From IMG/VR virus record IMGVR_UViG_2925891887_000005: a stretch of 50,264 bases of DNA. One strand, given 5' to 3'. Positions 2,276-50,225 of the stretch are shown in pieces. The position numbers were made by a program, and so were the translations under genes. Numbering within the stretch: position 1 is the first letter of the stretch; each line of letters opens with the position of its first letter. Under the pieces are notes generated by a model. That model saw only the letters and a program-made list of their open reading frames with translations. It ran no database searches and was not told the origin of the DNA. This DNA is from a virus. Taxonomy: Duplodnaviria; Heunggongvirae; Uroviricota; Caudoviricetes.

Positions 2276-3505
2276 TTAGGCTACCAGAGCATTTGATCTT
2301 TGAGCTTGAACGTAATCACTCCACCATTGCATCAAACTCTGTCGCTCTATCAGATATTCTGCACGATTGTATGCTGCGATAATTTCATCTTTTTTCGAGT
2401 GGGCAAGCGCTGCCTCAAGAACTTCAGCTCTGAATTTACCAGACTCCTCTGCCGCTGTTCGTGCAATAGAACGCATACCGTGAGCTACAAGCTCGCCTCC
2501 GAACCCCATTCGGATGATAGCTGCGTTGGCTGTTTGTTCATGCATATGATTAAGAGGCGCTTTTATGCTGGGGAAAACCCATTCTCTATGCCCACTTATT
2601 GATTTCATTAATTCAAGGATGCGCAAAGCTTCTTTACTCAAAGGAACTTTGTGAAGCTTTTTCATTTTCATGAAATCAGCAGGAATGTTCCAAATGCTGT
2701 TGGTTGTATCAATATCAGACCACCTTGCGCGAACGGCTTCACCCGGACGAACCCATGTCAACAATTGCCATTCAATTAGCATACGTGTTTCCAACCGGAT
2801 TGACGCATTCGTCAAAGATTCCATAAACCTTGGCAATTCGCTTGGGGGAAGGGCAGGCATATTTTGCTTTTTTGGTTTACTGAATCTTTGACCAAGGTTG
2901 TCAGCCGGGTTGAACTCAATAAGTTCTTCAGTAGCTGCCCACCGGAAGATTTCATTCAGACGTGAAATGATACGGCGTAGAGTTTCCAATACGCCTCGTT
3001 GCTCAATAGGATCAAGGTGTTGTTTTAAGAGCTTAGGTCGGATCTCATTGATAGGGACATTACCCAGACCGGGAAAGACATTTCTCTCTAAGCTGCGCCA
3101 GATGTCTGCTGCATGGTCTTGTGAGATACCTGATGTCTTTACCTTCTCATCTAACCATTTCCGCGCTACGGCTTGGAGAGTGTGCTCAGTAGCACTCTTT
3201 AATGCCTTCGCCTTATCGTTGTTATGGATTTGGGGATCAACACCATTTGCCAGAAAGGAGAGATATTCATCACGTAAGGCTCTGGCTCTTGCAAGGGTAA
3301 GGTGAGGATATGTCCCAAGGCTCATTTTGGTTCTTTTCTTGCTCACTGGTACTGCATACCTGAAATACCAATTTTTCTTGCCTCCTTTCGCCAAAGGAGC
3401 GATTCGTAGAATCAGACCATCACCGTCAAACAAGTTGATTTCTTTATCGGCTGGCTTGGTACTTTTGATTTCAGTGTCAGTGAGCTTCTTAGCGATTTTT
3501 GCCAT
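2276..3505 (-). CDS. int: P4-family tyrosine integrase (N-terminal DUF4102-type arm domain)
   Basis: N-terminus KKLTDTEIKSTKPADKEINLFDGDGLILRIAP...WYFRY is the signature of CP4-57/P4-type integrases; C-terminal catalytic region present. Start chosen at internal MAKIAKK (the track ORF extends to 3547). Lies beside the ssrA 3'-end remnant. Confidence 0.85.
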   Translation of the reverse strand: MAKIAKKLTDTEIKSTKPADKEINLFDGDGLILRIAPLAKGGKKNWYFRYAVPVSKKRTKMSLGTYPHLTLARARALRDEYLSFLANGVDPQIHNNDKAKALKSATEHTLQAVARKWLDEKVKTSGISQDHAADIWRSLERNVFPGLGNVPINEIRPKLLKQHLDPIEQRGVLETLRRIISRLNEIFRWAATEELIEFNPADNLGQRFSKPKKQNMPALPPSELPRFMESLTNASIRLETRMLIEWQLLTWVRPGEAVRARWSDIDTTNSIWNIPADFMKMKKLHKVPLSKEALRILELMKSISGHREWVFPSIKAPLNHMHEQTANAAIIRMGFGGELVAHGMRSIARTAAEESGKFRAEVLEAALAHSKKDEIIAAYNRAEYLIERQSLMQWWSDYVQAQRSNALVA

Positions 3506-3841: not shown

Positions 3842-4765
3842 ATGGAACTGTTGATTTCCCCAAAAAGATTGTGCCTTTATAATGATTCTGATCGCCGTGT
3901 TACAGCTAAGTTTTTGAACTCAGTTGATAACACCCTTGCGAGAGCATCTGGACAAGTGGTTATAGACTTTTCGACAGTAGAATATGCAGGTGCTGCAGCT
4001 AGCGTAAGGTTGTTTGCTATCATCAGTAGGGCTTATTTTATGGCATTCGGCACAAGTAGTCTTCGATTTATTTGGCCGAAAAAAGAAAATAATCCGTATG
4101 GGCATCGATATATTGTTGGGACGGGGTTATCGATTGCTCTAATGGCAAATACAGTTGATAAATTAGATGTTCTTACTAAGGAACGCAGGTACTTTCAGTC
4201 TGCTGTGGAACCGTATGAACATTGGGCTAAAACGATGGAATTTATTGATTCAAAAGCAATTCTCACATTTGAGCAATATCTTTTGGTCTCCTCAGCCCTT
4301 AGTGAGGCAATGCTGAATGTTTCATATCATGCATATGAACATCCAGACTTTGCTGGTGCTACAGAGCATATGCAAGGGAAACGATGGTGGCAGAGTTGTT
4401 GGTACAACCCTGACACAGACAAGGTTGTCTTTATTATTTATGATCTTGGGCTTGGCATACATAAATCATTTACTTCAGCCTCTCCGTTGTTTACTGGGTA
4501 TGACGACGTGACATCTGTGTCAACAGCCCTGACAGGAGGACAGTCCAGATATGTTAACGCTGGACGTGGTAATGGTTCTGAGGATATAAAGAGACCTATA
4601 GGGTCTGGCTGTGCGAATTCAGAATCACTTTTGGTGTTCACAGGGAATGTTAAGTACAGCTATAATTCAAGAAATGAGGTTCCCAAATGCGAGTGGATAC
4701 CTGAGTACATGCCGGGAACATTGATTGAATGGTCATTAGTTCCGAGGAGAGGAGAAGATGGTTAA
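3842..4765 (+). CDS. GHKL-type (histidine-kinase-like) ATPase-domain protein, possibly with an N-terminal STAS-like segment
   Basis: N-box-like SEAMLNVSYHAYEH, G1-like IIYDLGLGI and G2-like GRGNGS...IGSG motifs in the C-terminal half. N-terminal VVIDFSTVEYAGAAASVRLF resembles STAS-like folds. GAGG ribosome-binding site 8 nt upstream of the ATG. Confidence 0.6.
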   Translation: MELLISPKRLCLYNDSDRRVTAKFLNSVDNTLARASGQVVIDFSTVEYAGAAASVRLFAIISRAYFMAFGTSSLRFIWPKKENNPYGHRYIVGTGLSIALMANTVDKLDVLTKERRYFQSAVEPYEHWAKTMEFIDSKAILTFEQYLLVSSALSEAMLNVSYHAYEHPDFAGATEHMQGKRWWQSCWYNPDTDKVVFIIYDLGLGIHKSFTSASPLFTGYDDVTSVSTALTGGQSRYVNAGRGNGSEDIKRPIGSGCANSESLLVFTGNVKYSYNSRNEVPKCEWIPEYMPGTLIEWSLVPRRGEDG

Positions 4766-5099
4766 CATCGTCATAGCAAGGGATTTCTCAAAGATGCCAT
4801 TTGGAAGGTTCAAGTCTGACAGCCCGAACAGTGCTGAGCGTTTTCGTAAGGACTTTCTGGTTCCTGCATTAAAATCTGGTGAGCGTGAGGTTGTCGTAGA
4901 TTTTACGGGTATAAATCATGGGATTGGTTCTTCGTTTCTAGAGGAGGCCTTTGGAGGGCTTGTTAGGAAGGAAGGTGTACCTAAGGCTGACATTAAGGCA
5001 AAACTAATTATAAAAAGTGATTTGCCGTTCTATAAAGATCAAATTTTTAGATATATTGAAATGGCTAATCCAGAAAGGAAGCCTTTCCAAAGGAGTTGA
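4758..5099 (+). CDS. STAS-like (DUF4325-like) small protein, putative partner of the upstream GHKL ATPase
   Basis: 113 aa. Motif VVVDFTGINHGIGSSFLEEAFGGL matches the conserved core I recall for STAS-like/DUF4325 domains. ATG overlaps the upstream stop (translational coupling) and follows a GAGGAGAGGAG ribosome-binding site. Confidence 0.55.
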   Translation: MVNIVIARDFSKMPFGRFKSDSPNSAERFRKDFLVPALKSGEREVVVDFTGINHGIGSSFLEEAFGGLVRKEGVPKADIKAKLIIKSDLPFYKDQIFRYIEMANPERKPFQRS

Positions 5100-5100
5100 T

Positions 5101-5730
5101 TTGAACACCGTTGATATTAAGGACACCCTTGCAGGGGTGTCCACTTACGCATGGATGTTTAGTGTTGTGAGTATTATCTTAGTGTTTATTGGATGGTTTG
5201 TTACTTACAATAATTCACTGAAGATTGCTACTCGCTCTGAATCTAAATCGATTATAGATGCGATTGCTAAAATTTTAAACGAAATATCGGATTTGTCTCT
5301 GGATTACTGGGTTAATAAGTCAACACCACCAGATTCTAATCCATTTAAGAAAAAAAGTTTTAAGAACTCTAATGGATTGCATACTCAGTCGGCGAAAATA
5401 TATTTAACGGCAATTCATGGAAAAGCCATACAAATAAATAAATACATTAATCTTCTCGATGAGAGGGGGATAAAAATAACAATTTCGTATTTTTCTAATA
5501 TTATAGATGAAGCTACTATGGAATGTGAGAAATCATATTGTTTTAATAAGTCATATAGGGTTTTTCGCGCTCAGAATGTATCTAGTGCTTGTATCGATTT
5601 CATAATGCATTTATATGATTCTTTTCAAAAAAATCATCCTCCACGTAAGCCTGTATATGTATTGAAAACATTAAAACAATTGGATTGTTACTTGGATAAA
5701 TGGCATAATGAATTATGTGGGCGGCAATAA
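5101..5730 (+). CDS. Membrane-anchored protein (single N-terminal TM helix plus about 170-aa soluble domain), function unknown
   Basis: Track ORF is 5017-5730. AAGGAG sits 5 nt before an in-frame TTG at 5101, immediately after the upstream stop; alternative starts are ATG 5017 or ATG 5155. TM segment YAWMFSVVSIILVFIGWFVTY. Very AT-rich. Confidence 0.5.
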   Translation: MNTVDIKDTLAGVSTYAWMFSVVSIILVFIGWFVTYNNSLKIATRSESKSIIDAIAKILNEISDLSLDYWVNKSTPPDSNPFKKKSFKNSNGLHTQSAKIYLTAIHGKAIQINKYINLLDERGIKITISYFSNIIDEATMECEKSYCFNKSYRVFRAQNVSSACIDFIMHLYDSFQKNHPPRKPVYVLKTLKQLDCYLDKWHNELCGRQ

Positions 5731-5742
5731 ATGCCGCCATAA

Positions 5743-6909
5743 TCATTGTATAATGTATTTGATGGAGCTTTTTCCGTCGTATTCTTTGAGATATCGACCA
5801 TAGTGCCTGAAAAGCATCTCCGGCCCTTTATGCCCCATTTGAGCTGCAAGCCAAAACAGGTTTGCTCCTCGGCTGATATGGCTGGTGGCGAATGTATGCC
5901 TGGTTTGATATGGGTTTCTGTAACGAATACCTGCTTTTCGCAATGTTGGCACCCATGCTTTTTTCCTAATTGCATCAGCACTTGCCCAAGGCTTATTGGT
6001 CTTTGGATCTTCAAAGACAGTAGTATCCTTCATGAATGTAAATGGCTTCTGATTTATCAGCGCCAACATTGCCTCTTCTGTCAGTTCAACTTTCCGAGTA
6101 CCTGCTTTTGTCTTTGTCCCTTTGATAACACCGACAACACTTGCGCTCTGGACATAGGCAGTTTTTCCAACAAAGTCGATATCACGCCATCGAAGGGCAC
6201 ATAATTCAGAACTACGCAGGCCTGTATGTATAGCGAACCGGAACAGATTTTCCCATTGTTTGTTTCCGGCTGCTGCTAGTAATGCATCAACTTCTGCTGG
6301 TGATAGCGGATCAACTACGTAGCTGCTTTCTGCTTCTGACTTATCACTTTGGTAGCGCGAAGCTGTTACTAACGATACGGGGTTAATTTGAAGTACCCCA
6401 TCGGTCACGGCTTCATCAAGTGCTGACCGCAGGAAAGATAACTGGTTGCGAATTGTTTTTAAGGTCGTTTTCTGATTTTGAATCCACGCTTTCAGGGTTG
6501 CTGGTGTTAATTCACTTGCAGGGCAAATGTGAAGTGAGGCTAACGCACTACGGCATTTTTTATAGCCACCAATCGTAGAGGGTGAAAGTTTTCTTGTTTC
6601 GCAGATTTCAAGATATTCGTCCAGGTACATCTTTACCGTTTTGCCTGCAGCAGCATTACCAAAAATTTTCAAACGAGCAGAACGGGGAAAATATTCTGCA
6701 TAAATGAATGTTCCCCTTTCGATCTTATTATGGATTTCGCCGAGTGTACGCTCGGCGTATTTAATGTTCTTTGGTGTTACTTCCAGATTGGAAAGCGGCT
6801 CACGACATCTAACTCCTTTGTAGGTGAAAGTTATATTGATCGTTTCTCCCTGGCGGTGTTTCCTGATTGTTACGCCGCGCGGTAGTTTGAGCAGTTTTGT
6901 CTGGCCCAT
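5743..6909 (-). CDS. int: Prophage tyrosine integrase (lambda-type, arm-binding N-terminus)
   Basis: 388 aa with a catalytic C-terminus (R...HxxR...Y pattern: RHTFATS, LFRHYGRY) and an N-terminal arm-type domain. Immediately downstream of xis in the leftward operon. Confidence 0.9.
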   Translation of the reverse strand: MGQTKLLKLPRGVTIRKHRQGETINITFTYKGVRCREPLSNLEVTPKNIKYAERTLGEIHNKIERGTFIYAEYFPRSARLKIFGNAAAGKTVKMYLDEYLEICETRKLSPSTIGGYKKCRSALASLHICPASELTPATLKAWIQNQKTTLKTIRNQLSFLRSALDEAVTDGVLQINPVSLVTASRYQSDKSEAESSYVVDPLSPAEVDALLAAAGNKQWENLFRFAIHTGLRSSELCALRWRDIDFVGKTAYVQSASVVGVIKGTKTKAGTRKVELTEEAMLALINQKPFTFMKDTTVFEDPKTNKPWASADAIRKKAWVPTLRKAGIRYRNPYQTRHTFATSHISRGANLFWLAAQMGHKGPEMLFRHYGRYLKEYDGKSSIKYIIQ

Positions 6910-7076
6910 TTTGCAACCTCACTAAGATCAATCCACCTCTCCTTAACGCCTTCAACCTTTAAAACCTGAACACCTTCACGCCAAACACCGCGCTGTACAC
7001 GTTTGTTTATTGCTTCAGGAGTTTCGCCAGTTTCTTTGCAATAAGTTGAGATAGGAACACAATCGAGGTTCAGCAT
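6870..7076 (-). CDS. xis: Excisionase (Xis-like DNA-binding protein)
   Basis: Small basic ORF overlapping the int start; winged-helix-like TGETPEAINKRVQRGVWREG. Start placed at MLNLDC, which has GGAG 8 nt upstream; the track ORF extends to 7115. Confidence 0.65.
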   Translation of the reverse strand: MLNLDCVPISTYCKETGETPEAINKRVQRGVWREGVQVLKVEGVKERWIDLSEVAKWARQNCSNYRAA

Positions 7077-7117
7077 ACGTTTCTCCATTATCCCGTCTGC
7101 ACACGGGAGCAACATTA

Positions 7118-8008
7118 TTAACGAATAGTGTCGTTACTTTGAAGTACAGCAAATGCCATTAATACTTCTAAAGTATATCTTCTATAAAATTTAACAAAAC
7201 CAACATAGAAAACATAGACGAAGAAAAAGCTAAGCATTATTGAAAGTAAACTATAAAGATAATCACTATGAGTACATAATCGATAAATAAAGGTTGGAAC
7301 TGATACCCAAAATGAAATTATAAAGATTAAACATATGTTTCTGCAAAAACCATATAATGCAACATAGTTTTGAATTTTTGTTTGATGTTGTTTTGAAAAC
7401 TCATAAACATAATGATATGCCAATCTGAAGAGATCATCATCAAGTCCGTTTTTATCTTGTAATAATTGGCGATTTGTTATGAACTTTTTCTCATAACCTT
7501 CTTTGATCATTAACCATGTTGTATTAGCTAAATGAAATGGTAGAGATTGAGAATAACATAGTTTTTGTGTTATAAAATCCCATAGTATTATTGGGCATAA
7601 TACGCATTTGATTATGCGATTCTTTATTTTTGTTTTTTTATCAGCGCTTCTCTCATCGCATGATGGGCTACAAATGCTTTCTGAGGTATCTATCAATTTT
7701 TTAAATAGATATTTGGAAGGATATCCTAATTCTTTATTCATGTGTTTTTCGATAAAAAATGCTGACGTGATAGAAATAAAATGTCCAGCTATATAAGATA
7801 TAATAACTATTGAAGCGTAGTTCAAAATGCCAAAGATTTGACTTTGACCTCTGAGCAATTCACTTAAGTCAATAACAATATCTAGATCGAATGTCAAACC
7901 ACAGAAATACATTAATAGGATAAAAAAACCACCTGGTATTAAATATCCAAGAAAGTCATAGAATGAGAATGGATTTTGATTCATTGTTGCTCTCCAATAA
8001 TTGTTCAA
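7118..8008 (-). CDS. Polytopic membrane protein, unknown function (moron in the early-left operon)
   Basis: 296 aa with at least four hydrophobic helices at the N- and C-termini; extremely AT-rich, contrasting with flanking phage genes. Confidence 0.5.
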   Translation of the reverse strand: MNNYWRATMNQNPFSFYDFLGYLIPGGFFILLMYFCGLTFDLDIVIDLSELLRGQSQIFGILNYASIVIISYIAGHFISITSAFFIEKHMNKELGYPSKYLFKKLIDTSESICSPSCDERSADKKTKIKNRIIKCVLCPIILWDFITQKLCYSQSLPFHLANTTWLMIKEGYEKKFITNRQLLQDKNGLDDDLFRLAYHYVYEFSKQHQTKIQNYVALYGFCRNICLIFIISFWVSVPTFIYRLCTHSDYLYSLLSIMLSFFFVYVFYVGFVKFYRRYTLEVLMAFAVLQSNDTIR

Positions 8009-8092
8009 TTTGTAATATAACCTATATCTATATGTTAATAAATTACTTATATGTTCTTTTATGGCAGAGTTTGAATTCGTACGTGCTGATTT

Positions 8093-8617
8093 TTACGACT
8101 CAGTTAACTCTTTAAAGCGTTCCATAAACATCCCATAGGTATGGCCTGGCGACAGTGGAATAACTTTGAACATCTCTGTTGCCGGGATACCTTCCAGTAC
8201 GGGCCAGAAAGAGCCATCATCAAGCCCGAGATCGCGGCGTTCGGTTGCCAGCATGATGAGATCGGCATATTTCACGGGCGTACTCATAACCGGGGGTAAC
8301 CCGTATTTCTCACGGATTACGGCGTCTATTTTTTCTTCCATCCGTTTATAGTCAGGAAGAAGGCGTTTCAGTGGAGCCGGGATGTCCTGGCAATACGCTT
8401 CTGTTGCATCATGCATTAACGCTTCAAAAGCAAATTCCTGCGGTACCAGCTGGCTGCAAAGCACCGCATGTTGGGCGACGCTGTAGAAGTGTGAAAGATG
8501 GCCGGCAAAGCGACAGATATTTGAAAGGGAAACCGCGATATCGTTAATATCGATGTTGTCTTTATTTATCCTGTCATAATAAAAATGTTTCCCGGAAAAA
8601 GTTTTAATAAATGACAT
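8093..8617 (-). CDS. yfdR: HD-domain phosphohydrolase (YfdR-like)
   Basis: H...H (HLSHFYSVAQHAV) and HD (ALMHDATEAY) metal-binding motifs. ATG at 8617 is preceded by GGAG; the track ORF begins at GTG 8629. Confidence 0.75.
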   Translation of the reverse strand: MSFIKTFSGKHFYYDRINKDNIDINDIAVSLSNICRFAGHLSHFYSVAQHAVLCSQLVPQEFAFEALMHDATEAYCQDIPAPLKRLLPDYKRMEEKIDAVIREKYGLPPVMSTPVKYADLIMLATERRDLGLDDGSFWPVLEGIPATEMFKVIPLSPGHTYGMFMERFKELTES

Positions 8618-9998: not shown

Positions 9999-10595
9999 TT
10001 TGCTGCTCCTCATCATATCGACCCTGCAAGGTCGGTTGGTTTCTCCACAAAACAGAGAAGAACACCTGCGGTGACTGCCGCCCGGATGGATTGGGTTATG
10101 AGCCCGTCGTCCGGTGATGCTCTTCTCTGTTTTGTAAAAAGAGCGGTACCAGCCGGAAGCAAGGGTACAAACTGGTACCGCCAAAGCAGTGGCTGTTGTG
10201 GTGGGGTTGTCACTCAGGCGTATGGTCAACCTGACAATCCGGTGTCCTCAACGGGGAAAGAGTAACCCCGCCATACTTACCGCCGCGCCATTTCGCGGAT
10301 TACCACAACGCTGAGAGCACTTAGCCAGTTACGGCACCACACTTTGTCGCGGCTCCATAAATGCCCTCATCGTTGCACCCTGGTCTCTTCCCAGGCGTCA
10401 AACCGAATCGCCACGCTGGTTAGGCGTCTTATCAGCATCATCATTGACTTGCACATTCCGGCTACCTGGTTTGTTTGCTCGAGCAAGGAGTGGATTGTCC
10501 CCTTTAACGTCACCAGACCGCTAACGACGCATGTGCCATACGCCGTGTTACAACCAAATTTTGTTTTAATCTTGCCTGTGTTATGTTTCTTTTAG

Positions 10596-12227: not shown

Positions 12228-13060
12228 ACAGTTTAACGGCAAATAACCGTTTGTCGCAACAGCTGGTGGTCAGCGTCGCTGAACACCTGTTGTTACGGCA
12301 TGAATGCAGATTACCAAATCACCTGGCTGTAAGTAACCACAGAGAACTTTACCTGACTGTGGGGGGCGAGTTGTGCAGGAACTTAACCGCTGGTTTCGTG
12401 ACGGAAGAGGACTTTATGTTCATGTTATTCGTTGGGAGCCAGAAACACAGCGCGTTATCTATCTTCGCAAAGACTACCCGCATGAGTGCTTTAGTCCTTT
12501 GTGGAAATTCAGGCGTGATTTTATTGAGTGTGAAGGACCACCAGCACATTGATTCTGCCATTCCGGGACGTTACACTGTTCAGGCACCTTATAAAGCGGG
12601 TGCCGGGATTGGCGTCCTGGAATTGATCAAGGCGATATATGACGCGCCAGCGTCTTTTTTATCGTCCGCATTTGCTCACATCAAAGTTATGGTGGGCTGG
12701 GCGGGGGCATCGAAAGATGCGCCGGTTTCCTTGATCACCGGTTACGCCAACCCCGTTCAGTTCACCACCAGCGAAATTGGCGTTTCCGGTGGTGGAAGTA
12801 TTTCACCGATCAAGGAGGCTGCCATCATGGCTACTGTCCCAGCCCTCACTCGTCTGAATGATGAAGACTTACATAAACTCAGTTATGTAACAACAGCACT
12901 ACGTGCTCTGCGCAAGGTAACTCTTTCAGATCCGCAGGCGCATCAACTTCTGGTAGAAACCCTTCTTAACTTGCAGGCTGAACGTATTCGTTTGGCGGAT
13001 AAGGCTAATCTTCATATTCACCGTCTCCTGAATATCAGCGGAGGGCATCGTCATGCTTAA
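12224..13060 (+). CDS. Hypothetical early protein(s); coding frame ambiguous
   Basis: ATG overlaps the upstream stop (ATGA). There is an internal AAGGAGG plus ATG at 12827, and an alternative-frame GTG ORF at 12373-12552; it may be one gene or several small ones. Confidence 0.35.
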   Translation: MNSLTANNRLSQQLVVSVAEHLLLRHECRLPNHLAVSNHRELYLTVGGELCRNLTAGFVTEEDFMFMLFVGSQKHSALSIFAKTTRMSALVLCGNSGVILLSVKDHQHIDSAIPGRYTVQAPYKAGAGIGVLELIKAIYDAPASFLSSAFAHIKVMVGWAGASKDAPVSLITGYANPVQFTTSEIGVSGGGSISPIKEAAIMATVPALTRLNDEDLHKLSYVTTALRALRKVTLSDPQAHQLLVETLLNLQAERIRLADKANLHIHRLLNISGGHRHA

Positions 13061-15571: not shown

Positions 15572-15957
15572 AGCTGATTCTGCCTTTTCCACCCAGCGTG
15601 AACACCTACTGGCGACACCCCAACAAAGGGGCATTTGCTGGTAAGAGCCTGATAAGCGCGGCGGGGCGAAAATTCCAAAGTGCGGCGTGCACAGCAATAG
15701 TTGAGCAGTTACGTCGTCTGCCGAAACCAACGTCGGCACCTGCTTCAGTGGAGATCGTGTTGTTTCCTCCGGATAACCGGATCCGCGATCTGGACAACTA
15801 TAACAAGGCGCTGTTTGACGCCCTGACCCACGCGGGTGTGTGGGAAGACGACAGCCAGGTGAAAAGAATGCTGGTGGAGTGGGGACCGGTTATCCCGGAA
15901 GGGAAGGTCGAGATCACTATCAGTAAGTACGAGAAAACGGCGGGTGCAGCCGCCTGA
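15568..15957 (+). CDS. rusA: RusA Holliday-junction resolvase
   Basis: MKLILPFPPSVNTYWRH...DLDNYNKALFDALTHAGVWEDD matches the RusA family signature. Confidence 0.85.
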   Translation: MKLILPFPPSVNTYWRHPNKGAFAGKSLISAAGRKFQSAACTAIVEQLRRLPKPTSAPASVEIVLFPPDNRIRDLDNYNKALFDALTHAGVWEDDSQVKRMLVEWGPVIPEGKVEITISKYEKTAGAAA

Positions 15958-45118: not shown

Positions 45119-45702
45119 TGGCATTCAGAATGAGTGAACAACCACGGACCATAACAATTTATAATCTGCTGGCCGGAACTAATGAATTTATTGGTGAAGG
45201 TGATGCATATATTCCGCCTCATACAGGTCTGCCAGCAAACAGTACCGATATTGCACCACCAGATATTCCTGCTGGCTTTGTGGCTGTTTTCAACAGTGAT
45301 GAGGCATCGTGGCATCTCGTTGAAGACCATCGGGGTAAAACGGTTTATGACGTGGCTTCCGGCGACGCGTTATTTATTTCTGAACTCGGTCCGTTACCGG
45401 AAAATGTTACCTGGTTGTCGCCGGGAGGGGAGTATCAGAAGTGGAACGGCACAGCCTGGGGGAAGGATACGGAAGCAGAAAAACTGTTCCGGATCCGGGA
45501 GGCAGAAGAAACAAAAAACAGCCTGATGCAGGTAGCCAGTGAGCATATTGCGCCACTTCAGGATGCTGTAGATCTGGAAATCGCAACGGAGGAAGAAAAC
45601 TCGTTGCTGGAAGCCTGGAAGAAGTATCGGGTGTTGCTGAACCGTGTTGATACATCAACTGCACCGGATATTGAGTGGCCAGAAGAACCAGACACCGTGT
45701 AA
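45118..45702 (+). CDS. tfa: Tail fibre assembly protein Tfa
   Basis: Lambda Tfa-like; TAATG overlap with stf. Confidence 0.85.
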
Positions 45703-49862: not shown

Positions 49863-49892
49863 TGGTGGAGCTGGCGGGAGTTGAACCCGCGT
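49863..49892. repeat. attR core: 3' end of ssrA, identical to the repeat at 3671-3700
   Basis: Exact 30-bp identity with 3671-3700. Confidence 0.85.
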
Positions 49893-50225
49893 CCGAAATT
49901 CCTACATCCTCGGTACTACATGCTTAGTCAGTCTTTACATTCGCTTGCCAACTGCGGACGGACACGCCACTAACAAACTAGCCTGATTAAGTTTTAACGC
50001 TTCAACCCCAGGCAGGGCTTCCACGCGATCTCTTTTGGGTTTGACCTCTCTTGATCCCCGTCCTAAGAGCGGAGGCTAGGGAGAGAGGGCTCTAAGCAGG
50101 TTATTAAGCTGCTAAAGCGTAGTTTTCGTCGTTTGCGACTATTTTTTGCGGCTTTTTACGAGGCCAACCGCCCCTCGGCATGCACCTTGGGTTTCGCAAA
50201 TCCCGTCGAATCCAGAATCAGCCCC
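49863..50225 (-). ncRNA. ssrA: tmRNA (SsrA), complete 363-nt gene
   Basis: Reverse complement reads GGGGCTGATTCTGGATTCGACGGG ... tag ORF GCAAACGACGAAAACTACGCTTTAGCAGCTTAA (ANDENYALAA) ... GGTTCAACTCCCGCCAGCTCCACCA; a TATACT -10 element lies just upstream at about 50240. Confidence 0.95.

Follow-up and report, generated by a model that had tools for sequence, protein, structure and literature searches.

In a lambdoid prophage, the final gene of the leftward early operon encodes a protein of 288 amino acids that is predicted to span the inner membrane four times and that is remotely homologous to Csx27 as far as profile comparisons indicate; as its family occurs beside anti-phage defence genes, it is a good candidate for a defence gene. 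The gene occupies positions 7118 to 7984 (stop codon included, minus strand) of the 50,264-nucleotide stretch analysed here, hereafter called the window, which is 100% identical to the chromosome of Escherichia coli 22AR0322. Already known was the family, as PHROG 12528 and as system #3 of the P2 hotspot, profile-related to Csx27; what is new is the lambdoid allele that stands alone near xis, together with the evidence tying the prophage family to Csx27.

Gene model and integrity of the membrane-protein gene

A preliminary description of this DNA had reported an open reading frame of 296 residues at 7118 to 8008. The frame on the minus strand proved to be real, but its length had to be revised to 288 residues (WP_021530639.1), a model resting on the list of open reading frames, PHROG 12528, and RefSeq. 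Specifically, the start was moved from the TTG at 8008 to the ATG at 7984, because the PHROG 12528 alignment begins at residue 9 of the longer version, the RefSeq annotation comprises 867 nucleotides, all homologues begin with the residues MNQNPFS, and a ribosome-binding site, GGAG (7995-7992), is located 7 nucleotides before this ATG. The earlier TTG start falls within the −10/transcription start region of the promoter-like element described below.

The AT richness remarked upon earlier was borne out: the GC content is 0.285 for the cassette at 7108 to 8097, compared with 0.445 for int/xis and 0.458 for yfdR/yfdQ, and it runs at 0.28 to 0.31 across the open reading frame and at 0.44 to 0.50 on both sides. 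This extreme composition, the lack of a functional annotation, and the fact that the gene was missed by the original annotation of strain UTI89 could be taken to indicate a nonfunctional remnant or a spurious open reading frame in AT-rich junk DNA. We consider this exceedingly improbable. At the cassette's own base composition a stop codon is expected approximately every 13 codons, so that a chance frame of 288 stop-free codons is very unlikely (probability ~6e-11). The dN/dS ratio relative to variants of 85% and 78% identity is 0.16 to 0.24; the gene is thus under purifying selection. Full-length conservation across phyla (201 clusters at E ≤ 1e-30) and a confident AlphaFold model (pTM 0.85) likewise speak against a remnant, and together these four lines of evidence exclude it. 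The gene is annotated as intact in 204 complete E. coli genomes, UTI89 among them, and is intact in every genome listed; the exact protein was encountered on 354 contigs, and at least 1,000 carry a near-identical one.

In UTI89 (L103 3501-4615, corresponding to NC_007946 2938874-2939988), the gene, UTI89_RS27040, and the adjacent xis gene, RS27045, carry late-added locus tags, which means that both were missed by the original annotation. Older transcriptome and Tn-seq studies of this strain probably did not score the membrane-protein gene.

An exchangeable cargo slot between yfdR and xis

The leftward early operon consists, in this order, of a gene for a cI-like repressor, yfdP, yfdQ, yfdR, the membrane-protein gene, an excisionase-like gene, and the integrase gene, in agreement with the position just upstream of xis-int assigned in the preliminary description. 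The conserved right flank is formed by yfdR (8093-8617, minus strand; RefSeq), encoding a 5′-deoxynucleotidase, and the conserved left flank by the excisionase-like gene (6870-7076, minus strand), whose 68-residue product (WP_001331174.1) has no Pfam match and was labelled xis on account of its size and its position before int. The tyrosine integrase of the prophage, a site-specific recombinase, is encoded at 5743 to 6909 (minus strand; open reading frame and RefSeq).

The gene had been described as an insertion; the comparison with sibling prophages indicates a replacement instead. Siblings with near-identical int/xis and yfdR carry at this place a gene for a 120-residue DUF551 protein and one for a 71-residue protein (DUF551 as assigned by Pfam, sibling gene content as given in the annotations). 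In blastn against locus L004, homology breaks exactly at 7107 and 8098, which defines an exchanged unit of 990 bp (7108-8097) comprising the membrane-protein gene and 113 bp of its own upstream DNA; the last codon and the stop codon of yfdR fall within the swapped segment. This int/xis module was present in 395 of 5,426 complete E. coli genomes, about 180 of which (~46%) carry the membrane-protein gene. The slot is polymorphic, and the membrane-protein gene is one of its major alleles. That the gene is a moron, as had been proposed, is strongly supported: it forms a discrete, AT-rich, swapped cassette, and the same gene recurs in xis-proximal, P2 gpA-gpQ, nin-region, and integron slots.

Several further elements were observed in the window. 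A second cargo slot lies across int (3842-5730, plus strand) and holds a three-gene cassette with an AT-rich 3′ part (GC 0.29), encoding a 307-residue protein with no Pfam match, a 113-residue STAS-like DUF4325 protein, and a 209-residue protein with an N-terminal transmembrane (TM) helix. The 237-residue version of the latter, from a longer open reading frame, gave a weak PADLOC match to a "2TM effector" (E 0.0055). Siblings have one or two other genes in this second slot, and UTI89 has the three genes in diverged form; the cassette may be another candidate defence locus. The far end of the window carries the tmRNA gene ssrA (49863-50225, minus strand), and another integrase gene (~2276-3505, minus strand) lies upstream of the three-gene cassette; this suggests that mobile elements are arranged in tandem at ssrA, a hotspot of integration. 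Matches above the Rfam gathering score were obtained in the early-right region for isrK (12584-12660, plus strand, 64 bits) and for C4 antisense RNA (12685-12772, plus strand, 82 bits), which by these matches represent a P1/P7-type antisense immunity element within a lambdoid prophage; an Rfam match to IS009 RNA was found at 45461 to 45659.

A recurrent hairpin at the slot edge

Directly before the ribosome-binding site of xis lies a hairpin, UCCCGU-GUGCAG-ACGGGA (7091-7108, minus strand), which recurs in each of the four lambdoid xis backgrounds discussed below and whose 5′ edge coincides exactly with the left boundary of the cargo slot. The motif, an intercistronic one, combines an invariant G/UUGCAG loop with a covarying, variable stem of 5 to 8 bp (5 to 7 bp before xis). 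Further copies are located before yfdP (10019-10034, minus strand), before a KilA-N gene (15939-15954, plus strand), and at 5121 to 5142 (plus strand), giving four copies in the window versus 0.42 expected; three of the four, those preceding xis, yfdP, and the KilA-N gene, are followed by GGAG and ATG within approximately 10 nucleotides. The hairpin was also found in loci L003, L015 to L022, and L027 to L077. Compensatory changes were seen in five of five stem pairs, a count that is circular in that the set had been selected for pairing. The local fold was no more stable than that of shuffled sequence, and no Rfam family matched the hairpin. It could be a protein-binding site, a processing site, or a translational control element.

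Upstream region and expression signals

The 113 bp preceding the gene (7985-8097, minus strand) are AT-rich and travel with it, being conserved with the 85% and 78% variants elsewhere. Within this region, a promoter-like element stands out by its conservation (minus strand): a −35 hexamer TTTATT at 8042 to 8037 and a −10 hexamer TATATT at 8019 to 8014, separated by a 17-nucleotide spacer, which match the respective consensus in 3/6 and 5/6 positions. The arrangement is kept with the gene in other backgrounds, and a similar one is found in a third variant. A scan with the sigma-70 consensus returned no promoter upstream of the gene, this element being below the threshold; the conservation of the hexamers suggests that the element at 8042 to 8014 may nevertheless act as a promoter. 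Expression signals, whose lack had been named as a sign of a nonfunctional remnant, are thus present in the form of the ribosome-binding site and the conserved promoter-like element.

No terminator was predicted between yfdR and the membrane-protein gene. Copies in other phages bear on how the gene is expressed: in L089 and L090 the family gene points opposite to the phage genes on either side and would therefore need a promoter of its own, and in L087 the family gene and an adjacent AbiU gene are jointly inverted relative to the phage operon. From the inverted copies in other phages, independent expression of the family gene is likely, and the lambdoid gene is presumably expressed in the lysogen.

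Topology, structure model, and conserved residues

The clustering of TM helices at both ends of the protein, noted in the preliminary description, was reproduced by Kyte-Doolittle analysis combined with the helices of the AlphaFold model, which place TM1 at residues ~12-32, TM2 at ~52-78, TM3 at ~207-232, and TM4 at ~244-266, with a helical domain of about 130 residues between the two TM pairs. The model has a pLDDT of 84.7. Across 106 family members, the mean number of lysine and arginine residues is 17.2 in the central domain and 3.75 at the C terminus, compared with 0.9 and 0.4 in the two short loops, and this distribution points to both termini and the central domain being cytoplasmic. The protein is accordingly predicted to be a four-TM inner-membrane protein with N-in/C-in topology and a cytoplasmic central domain.

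Four conserved blocks were recognised, all of them on the predicted cytoplasmic side. The N-terminal motif NPFSxYDFLGYxxPG contains the invariant or near-invariant residues P5, F6, S7, Y9, D10, F11, G13, Y14, P17, and G18. The motif GHxxSxxSxxxE...YPS follows TM2, the conserved positions in TM2 and just beyond it being Y64, G67, H68, S74, and E79 as well as Y88, P89, and S90. The motif DxFRxxYHYxxExxxxHxxKxQNYVALYGFxR precedes TM3, with H191, E195, H200, N206, Y207, A209, G212, and R215 running into the helix, and FxKFYRRxxLE follows TM4, with F263, K265, R269, E273, and M276 located just past it. Conservation is lowest in the predicted periplasmic loops, with a mean column identity of 0.25 and 0.18 versus 0.87 for the N-terminal motif. 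In the central domain, a variable segment covers residues ~96-180.

The 288-residue protein showed no similarity in sequence or fold to characterised transporters or membrane enzymes, so that a match to a transporter, considered earlier as an argument against a cargo function, was not obtained. Fold comparison of the AlphaFold model gave no match that would support a pore and none that would indicate a mechanism. Among specific candidates, a CPBP/Abi-type intramembrane protease and a PAP2 phosphatase were rejected, as the His/Glu spacing, judged by eye, does not fit and no profile match was found; a lipoprotein was rejected for want of a lipobox at the N terminus.

Distribution and genomic contexts of the family

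The protein matches PHROG 12528 over its full length (E 7.4e-173, profile positions 1-288 of 288) and is thus a full-length member; this PHROG carries no functional annotation, so that no mechanism is gained from it. An exhaustive profile search retrieved at least 933 clusters (50% identity) at E ≤ 1e-3, almost all of them full-length at 260 to 320 residues. The statement in the preliminary description that no homologue could be recognised does not hold, as hundreds exist; named members come from Gammaproteobacteria, Betaproteobacteria, and Bacteroidota, every one of them annotated as hypothetical, and the relatives with a label are the Csx27 profile, PHROG 12528, and P2-hotspot system #3. Searches of Pfam, NCBIfam, and PDB sequences with the family gave no match.

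A family member is present in 491 of the 5,426 complete E. coli genomes (~9%), including the model uropathogen UTI89, and on 76 viral contigs of IMG/VR. In four unrelated lambdoid xis/int backgrounds, the family gene ends 43 to 58 bp before xis, on the same strand; elsewhere it occupies the P2 gpA-gpQ hotspot, nin-region slots, and an integron. In the integron (L012), the gene forms a single-gene cassette between attC-like repeats. The array itself is a chromosomal integron (L012 6300-16867) with attC-like repeats ending GGCGTTAG/T, and its further cassettes encode, among others, NADAR, RraB, NTP_transf_6, several acetyltransferases, and TfoX_C proteins.

Distant members adjoin genes for AbiU (PADLOC E 7e-112), a PIN_8 protein, and PDC-S06 with a type II restriction-modification (R-M) system, as well as a PD-T4-6-like kinase with PP2C, AbiH, and a BglII-like R-M system. 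The neighbourhoods at L008 and L009 are ordinary chromosomal ones and not defence-rich. In the Pseudomonas locus L009 (8343-8813), and also on the metagenome contigs L010 and L011, the family member is followed by a gene for a 156-residue protein with a weak Pfam match to 8xMP ("octameric membrane protein"), at 27 bits below the cutoff of 30.

Comparison with system #3 of the P2 hotspot

In P2-like phages, a family member is located between gpQ and gpA. The gpA-gpQ interval is the defence or diversity hotspot of P2 and holds mainly lysogen-expressed exclusion genes (Rousset et al. 2022). Table S5B of that study lists, as the third most frequent entry of the P2-hotspot catalogue, a "system #3" with the Pfam label DUF4760, 1,102 occurrences, and the description "1 TM in protein 1, 4 TM in protein 2" (Rousset et al. 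2022). Protein 2 of this entry is exactly the family member of locus L002, except for the annotated GTG start (V in the raw translation, M in the table). It is a full-length homologue of the lambdoid protein with the same motifs, 42% identical by tblastn and 43-44% over the full length. DUF4760 is absent from the tested-construct tables of Rousset et al. 2022, so that system #3 has apparently never been assayed.

Prophages carry both system #3 and the lambdoid gene as cargo, in slots recognised as variable or as sites of defence genes, and the two differ in the slot and in the partner. The P2-like system #3 is flanked by gpA and gpQ, the lambdoid gene by yfdR and xis; system #3 is always accompanied, 42 nucleotides upstream, by the DUF4760 gene, whereas the lambdoid gene stands without it. 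The partner of the P2-like phages is a 165-residue protein with one TM helix (L002 5464-5961; also L078 to L084, L100, and L101), and the pair often adjoins a ParM/StbB partition system. In tblastn, the DUF4760 protein matched P2-like loci only, and neither the window nor any of the lambdoid loci gave a match; a hidden DUF4760-like partner in lambdoid and chromosomal contexts was also sought by tblastn and by Pfam scans of the neighbours, with negative results. Either the DUF4760 partner is dispensable, or the P2-like and lambdoid versions work differently. The single-gene integron cassette, the inverted copies in L089 and L090, and the restriction of DUF4760 to P2-like phages suggest that the family gene can work alone.

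Relationship to Csx27

The 288-residue protein matches the PADLOC model of Csx27 (PDLC01605) weakly (E 2.8e-6, 25.9 bits; profile positions 4-188 of 206), a match that would be doubtful taken alone. In a set of 125 diverse family members, however, 90 (72%) match this model, the best with an E value of 2.2e-10, and 30 match a second type VI-B-associated TM model, tm_4, while none of 10 reversed-sequence controls matched anything. The controls rule out a compositional artefact as the source of the matches, and the similarity is thus sequence-specific and family-wide. It was established with PADLOC profiles. In a search for a genuine Csx27 sequence, the cas13b locus of B. zoohelcum was located via its direct repeat, with csx27 past the edge of the 8-kb stretch, and a metagenome scan with the N terminus of Cas13b gave no match.

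Csx27 has four predicted TM helices like the protein studied here, the profile similarity extends over nearly the whole length, and both Csx27 and the membrane-protein family are associated with defence loci. In contrast, Csx27 is approximately 200 residues long, and 263 residues of the 288-residue protein align to 185 profile positions, which places the roughly 80 additional residues in a larger cytoplasmic central domain. Csx27 sensu stricto adjoins cas13b and a type VI-B CRISPR array, whereas the present gene is flanked by yfdR and xis/int, no cas13b was found at the family loci examined, and the family, unlike Csx27, is carried solo on prophages and in an integron. With no cas13b neighbour and about 80 additional residues, the protein fails a narrow definition of Csx27; it should consequently be named Csx27-like and not Csx27. 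A wider Csx27 family was reportedly described by Makarova et al. in 2019. On the strength of the profile matches, the membrane-protein family appears to be remotely homologous to Csx27. Csx27 is encoded at type VI-B1 CRISPR-Cas13b loci as a membrane accessory protein; in E. coli, it reduced interference by Cas13b as much as 1e5-fold (Smargon et al.). Published analyses predict it to be a channel and link it bioinformatically to competence and ubiquitin-like genes.

Possible roles of the membrane protein

We consider it most likely, at modestly better than even probability, that the prophage expresses a membrane protein serving defence or superinfection exclusion, since the gene travels alone among slots that hold anti-phage genes. 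We count in favour of this reading the identity of the homologue with system #3 of the P2 hotspot and the Abi, R-M, PDC-S06, and PD-T4-6-like neighbours of other members. The earlier guess of a superinfection-exclusion or abortive-infection factor fits these neighbourhoods, but the evidence is one of association and tells neither of the two apart from the other or from a role that benefits the phage. Against defence we count that Csx27, the only studied relative, repressed Cas13b interference instead of defending; that a gene in the early-left location could be expressed in lytic growth only, for the phage's own benefit; that the promoter-like element is weak, L008 and L009 are not defence-rich, and no fold match supports a pore; and that the invariant His/Glu/Asp cluster could be the sign of an enzyme.

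Small polytopic inner-membrane proteins are familiar as accessory genes of temperate phages, examples being lambda RexB, which has four TM helices, P22 SieA and SieB, HK97 gp15, and T4 Imm. The 288-residue protein resembles them as polytopic inner-membrane prophage cargo and has no detectable sequence or profile similarity to them. PADLOC and Pfam, including their RexB, SieB, and Kiwa models, gave no such match, and no similarity to RexB, SieB, KwaA, or the TM effectors of CBASS and Pycsar was found; the PADLOC matches were confined to Csx27 and tm_4, and Pfam returned none. RexA+4TM entries were seen among the catalogued systems; unlike RexB, the family studied here has no RexA-like partner, and its taxonomic spread is far wider than that of the classical exclusion proteins. 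HepS, a prophage Abi protein reported in a 2026 Nature paper, is unrelated.

If the protein does act in defence or exclusion, the setting would be conflict between mobile elements, in which the prophage-expressed protein would protect the lysogen from other phages. In the mechanism we favour, either the conserved residues that face the cytoplasm or the central domain, which is variable, would sense a cytoplasmic trigger, whereupon the protein would oligomerise or open and compromise the membrane, resulting in abortive infection. Alternatively, it might keep incoming genomes from crossing the inner membrane, the loops lending specificity. The conserved cytoplasmic face and the variable periplasmic loops fit an abortive-infection effector and a genome-entry block alike; we put forward protection from phages, and its basis in a pore or in exclusion, as conjecture.

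Two other readings have to be weighed against this one. The protein could be an early phage product, made from the pL early-left transcript in lytic growth or upon induction, that would attenuate an immune effector or a membrane stress response of the host, in analogy to Csx27 and Cas13b, or condition the membrane. The gene is indeed the last of the early-left genes, co-oriented with yfdP-yfdQ-yfdR and xis and not separated from yfdR by a predicted terminator; lambdoid early-left regions classically hold host-takeover genes, and the repression of Cas13b interference by Csx27 would suit such a counter-defence role. Yet family members also occur at nonphage chromosomal sites, as neighbours of Abi and R-M genes, and within an integron array, settings whose usual cargo is host-protective genes, they are inverted relative to the phage operon in L089 and L090, and the P2 slot in which they recur is one of mainly lysogen-expressed exclusion genes. 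We regard a benefit to the phage as unlikely. Quite unlikely, too, is a membrane enzyme acting in lysogenic conversion, for which D10, H68, E79, H191, E195, H200, N206, and R215 would form a catalytic or metal-binding site and which would act on a lipid or envelope precursor, altering the surface or the membrane and perhaps causing exclusion indirectly. These residues are invariant or nearly so across 106 to 125 sequences at 25-35% identity and cluster at the predicted membrane-cytoplasm boundaries, and conversion genes are often located near int and att.

Significance

Extended to the family as a whole, the defence reading would describe a widespread, partnerless, single-protein membrane system for anti-phage defence or superinfection exclusion that is among the commonest cargo of lambdoid and P2-like hotspots in Enterobacteria and represents a free-living ancestor or relative of Csx27; we hold this view tentatively, with rather less than even confidence. 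The solo lambdoid allele is the simplest form in which it can be tested, being a single, partnerless gene that brings its own upstream DNA. Should it show a phenotype, the defence repertoire would gain a compact membrane system made of one gene, and an experimental handle on Csx27, the accessory protein of Cas13b systems, would be available; an absence of phenotype would bear on hotspot catalogues that equate location with defence.
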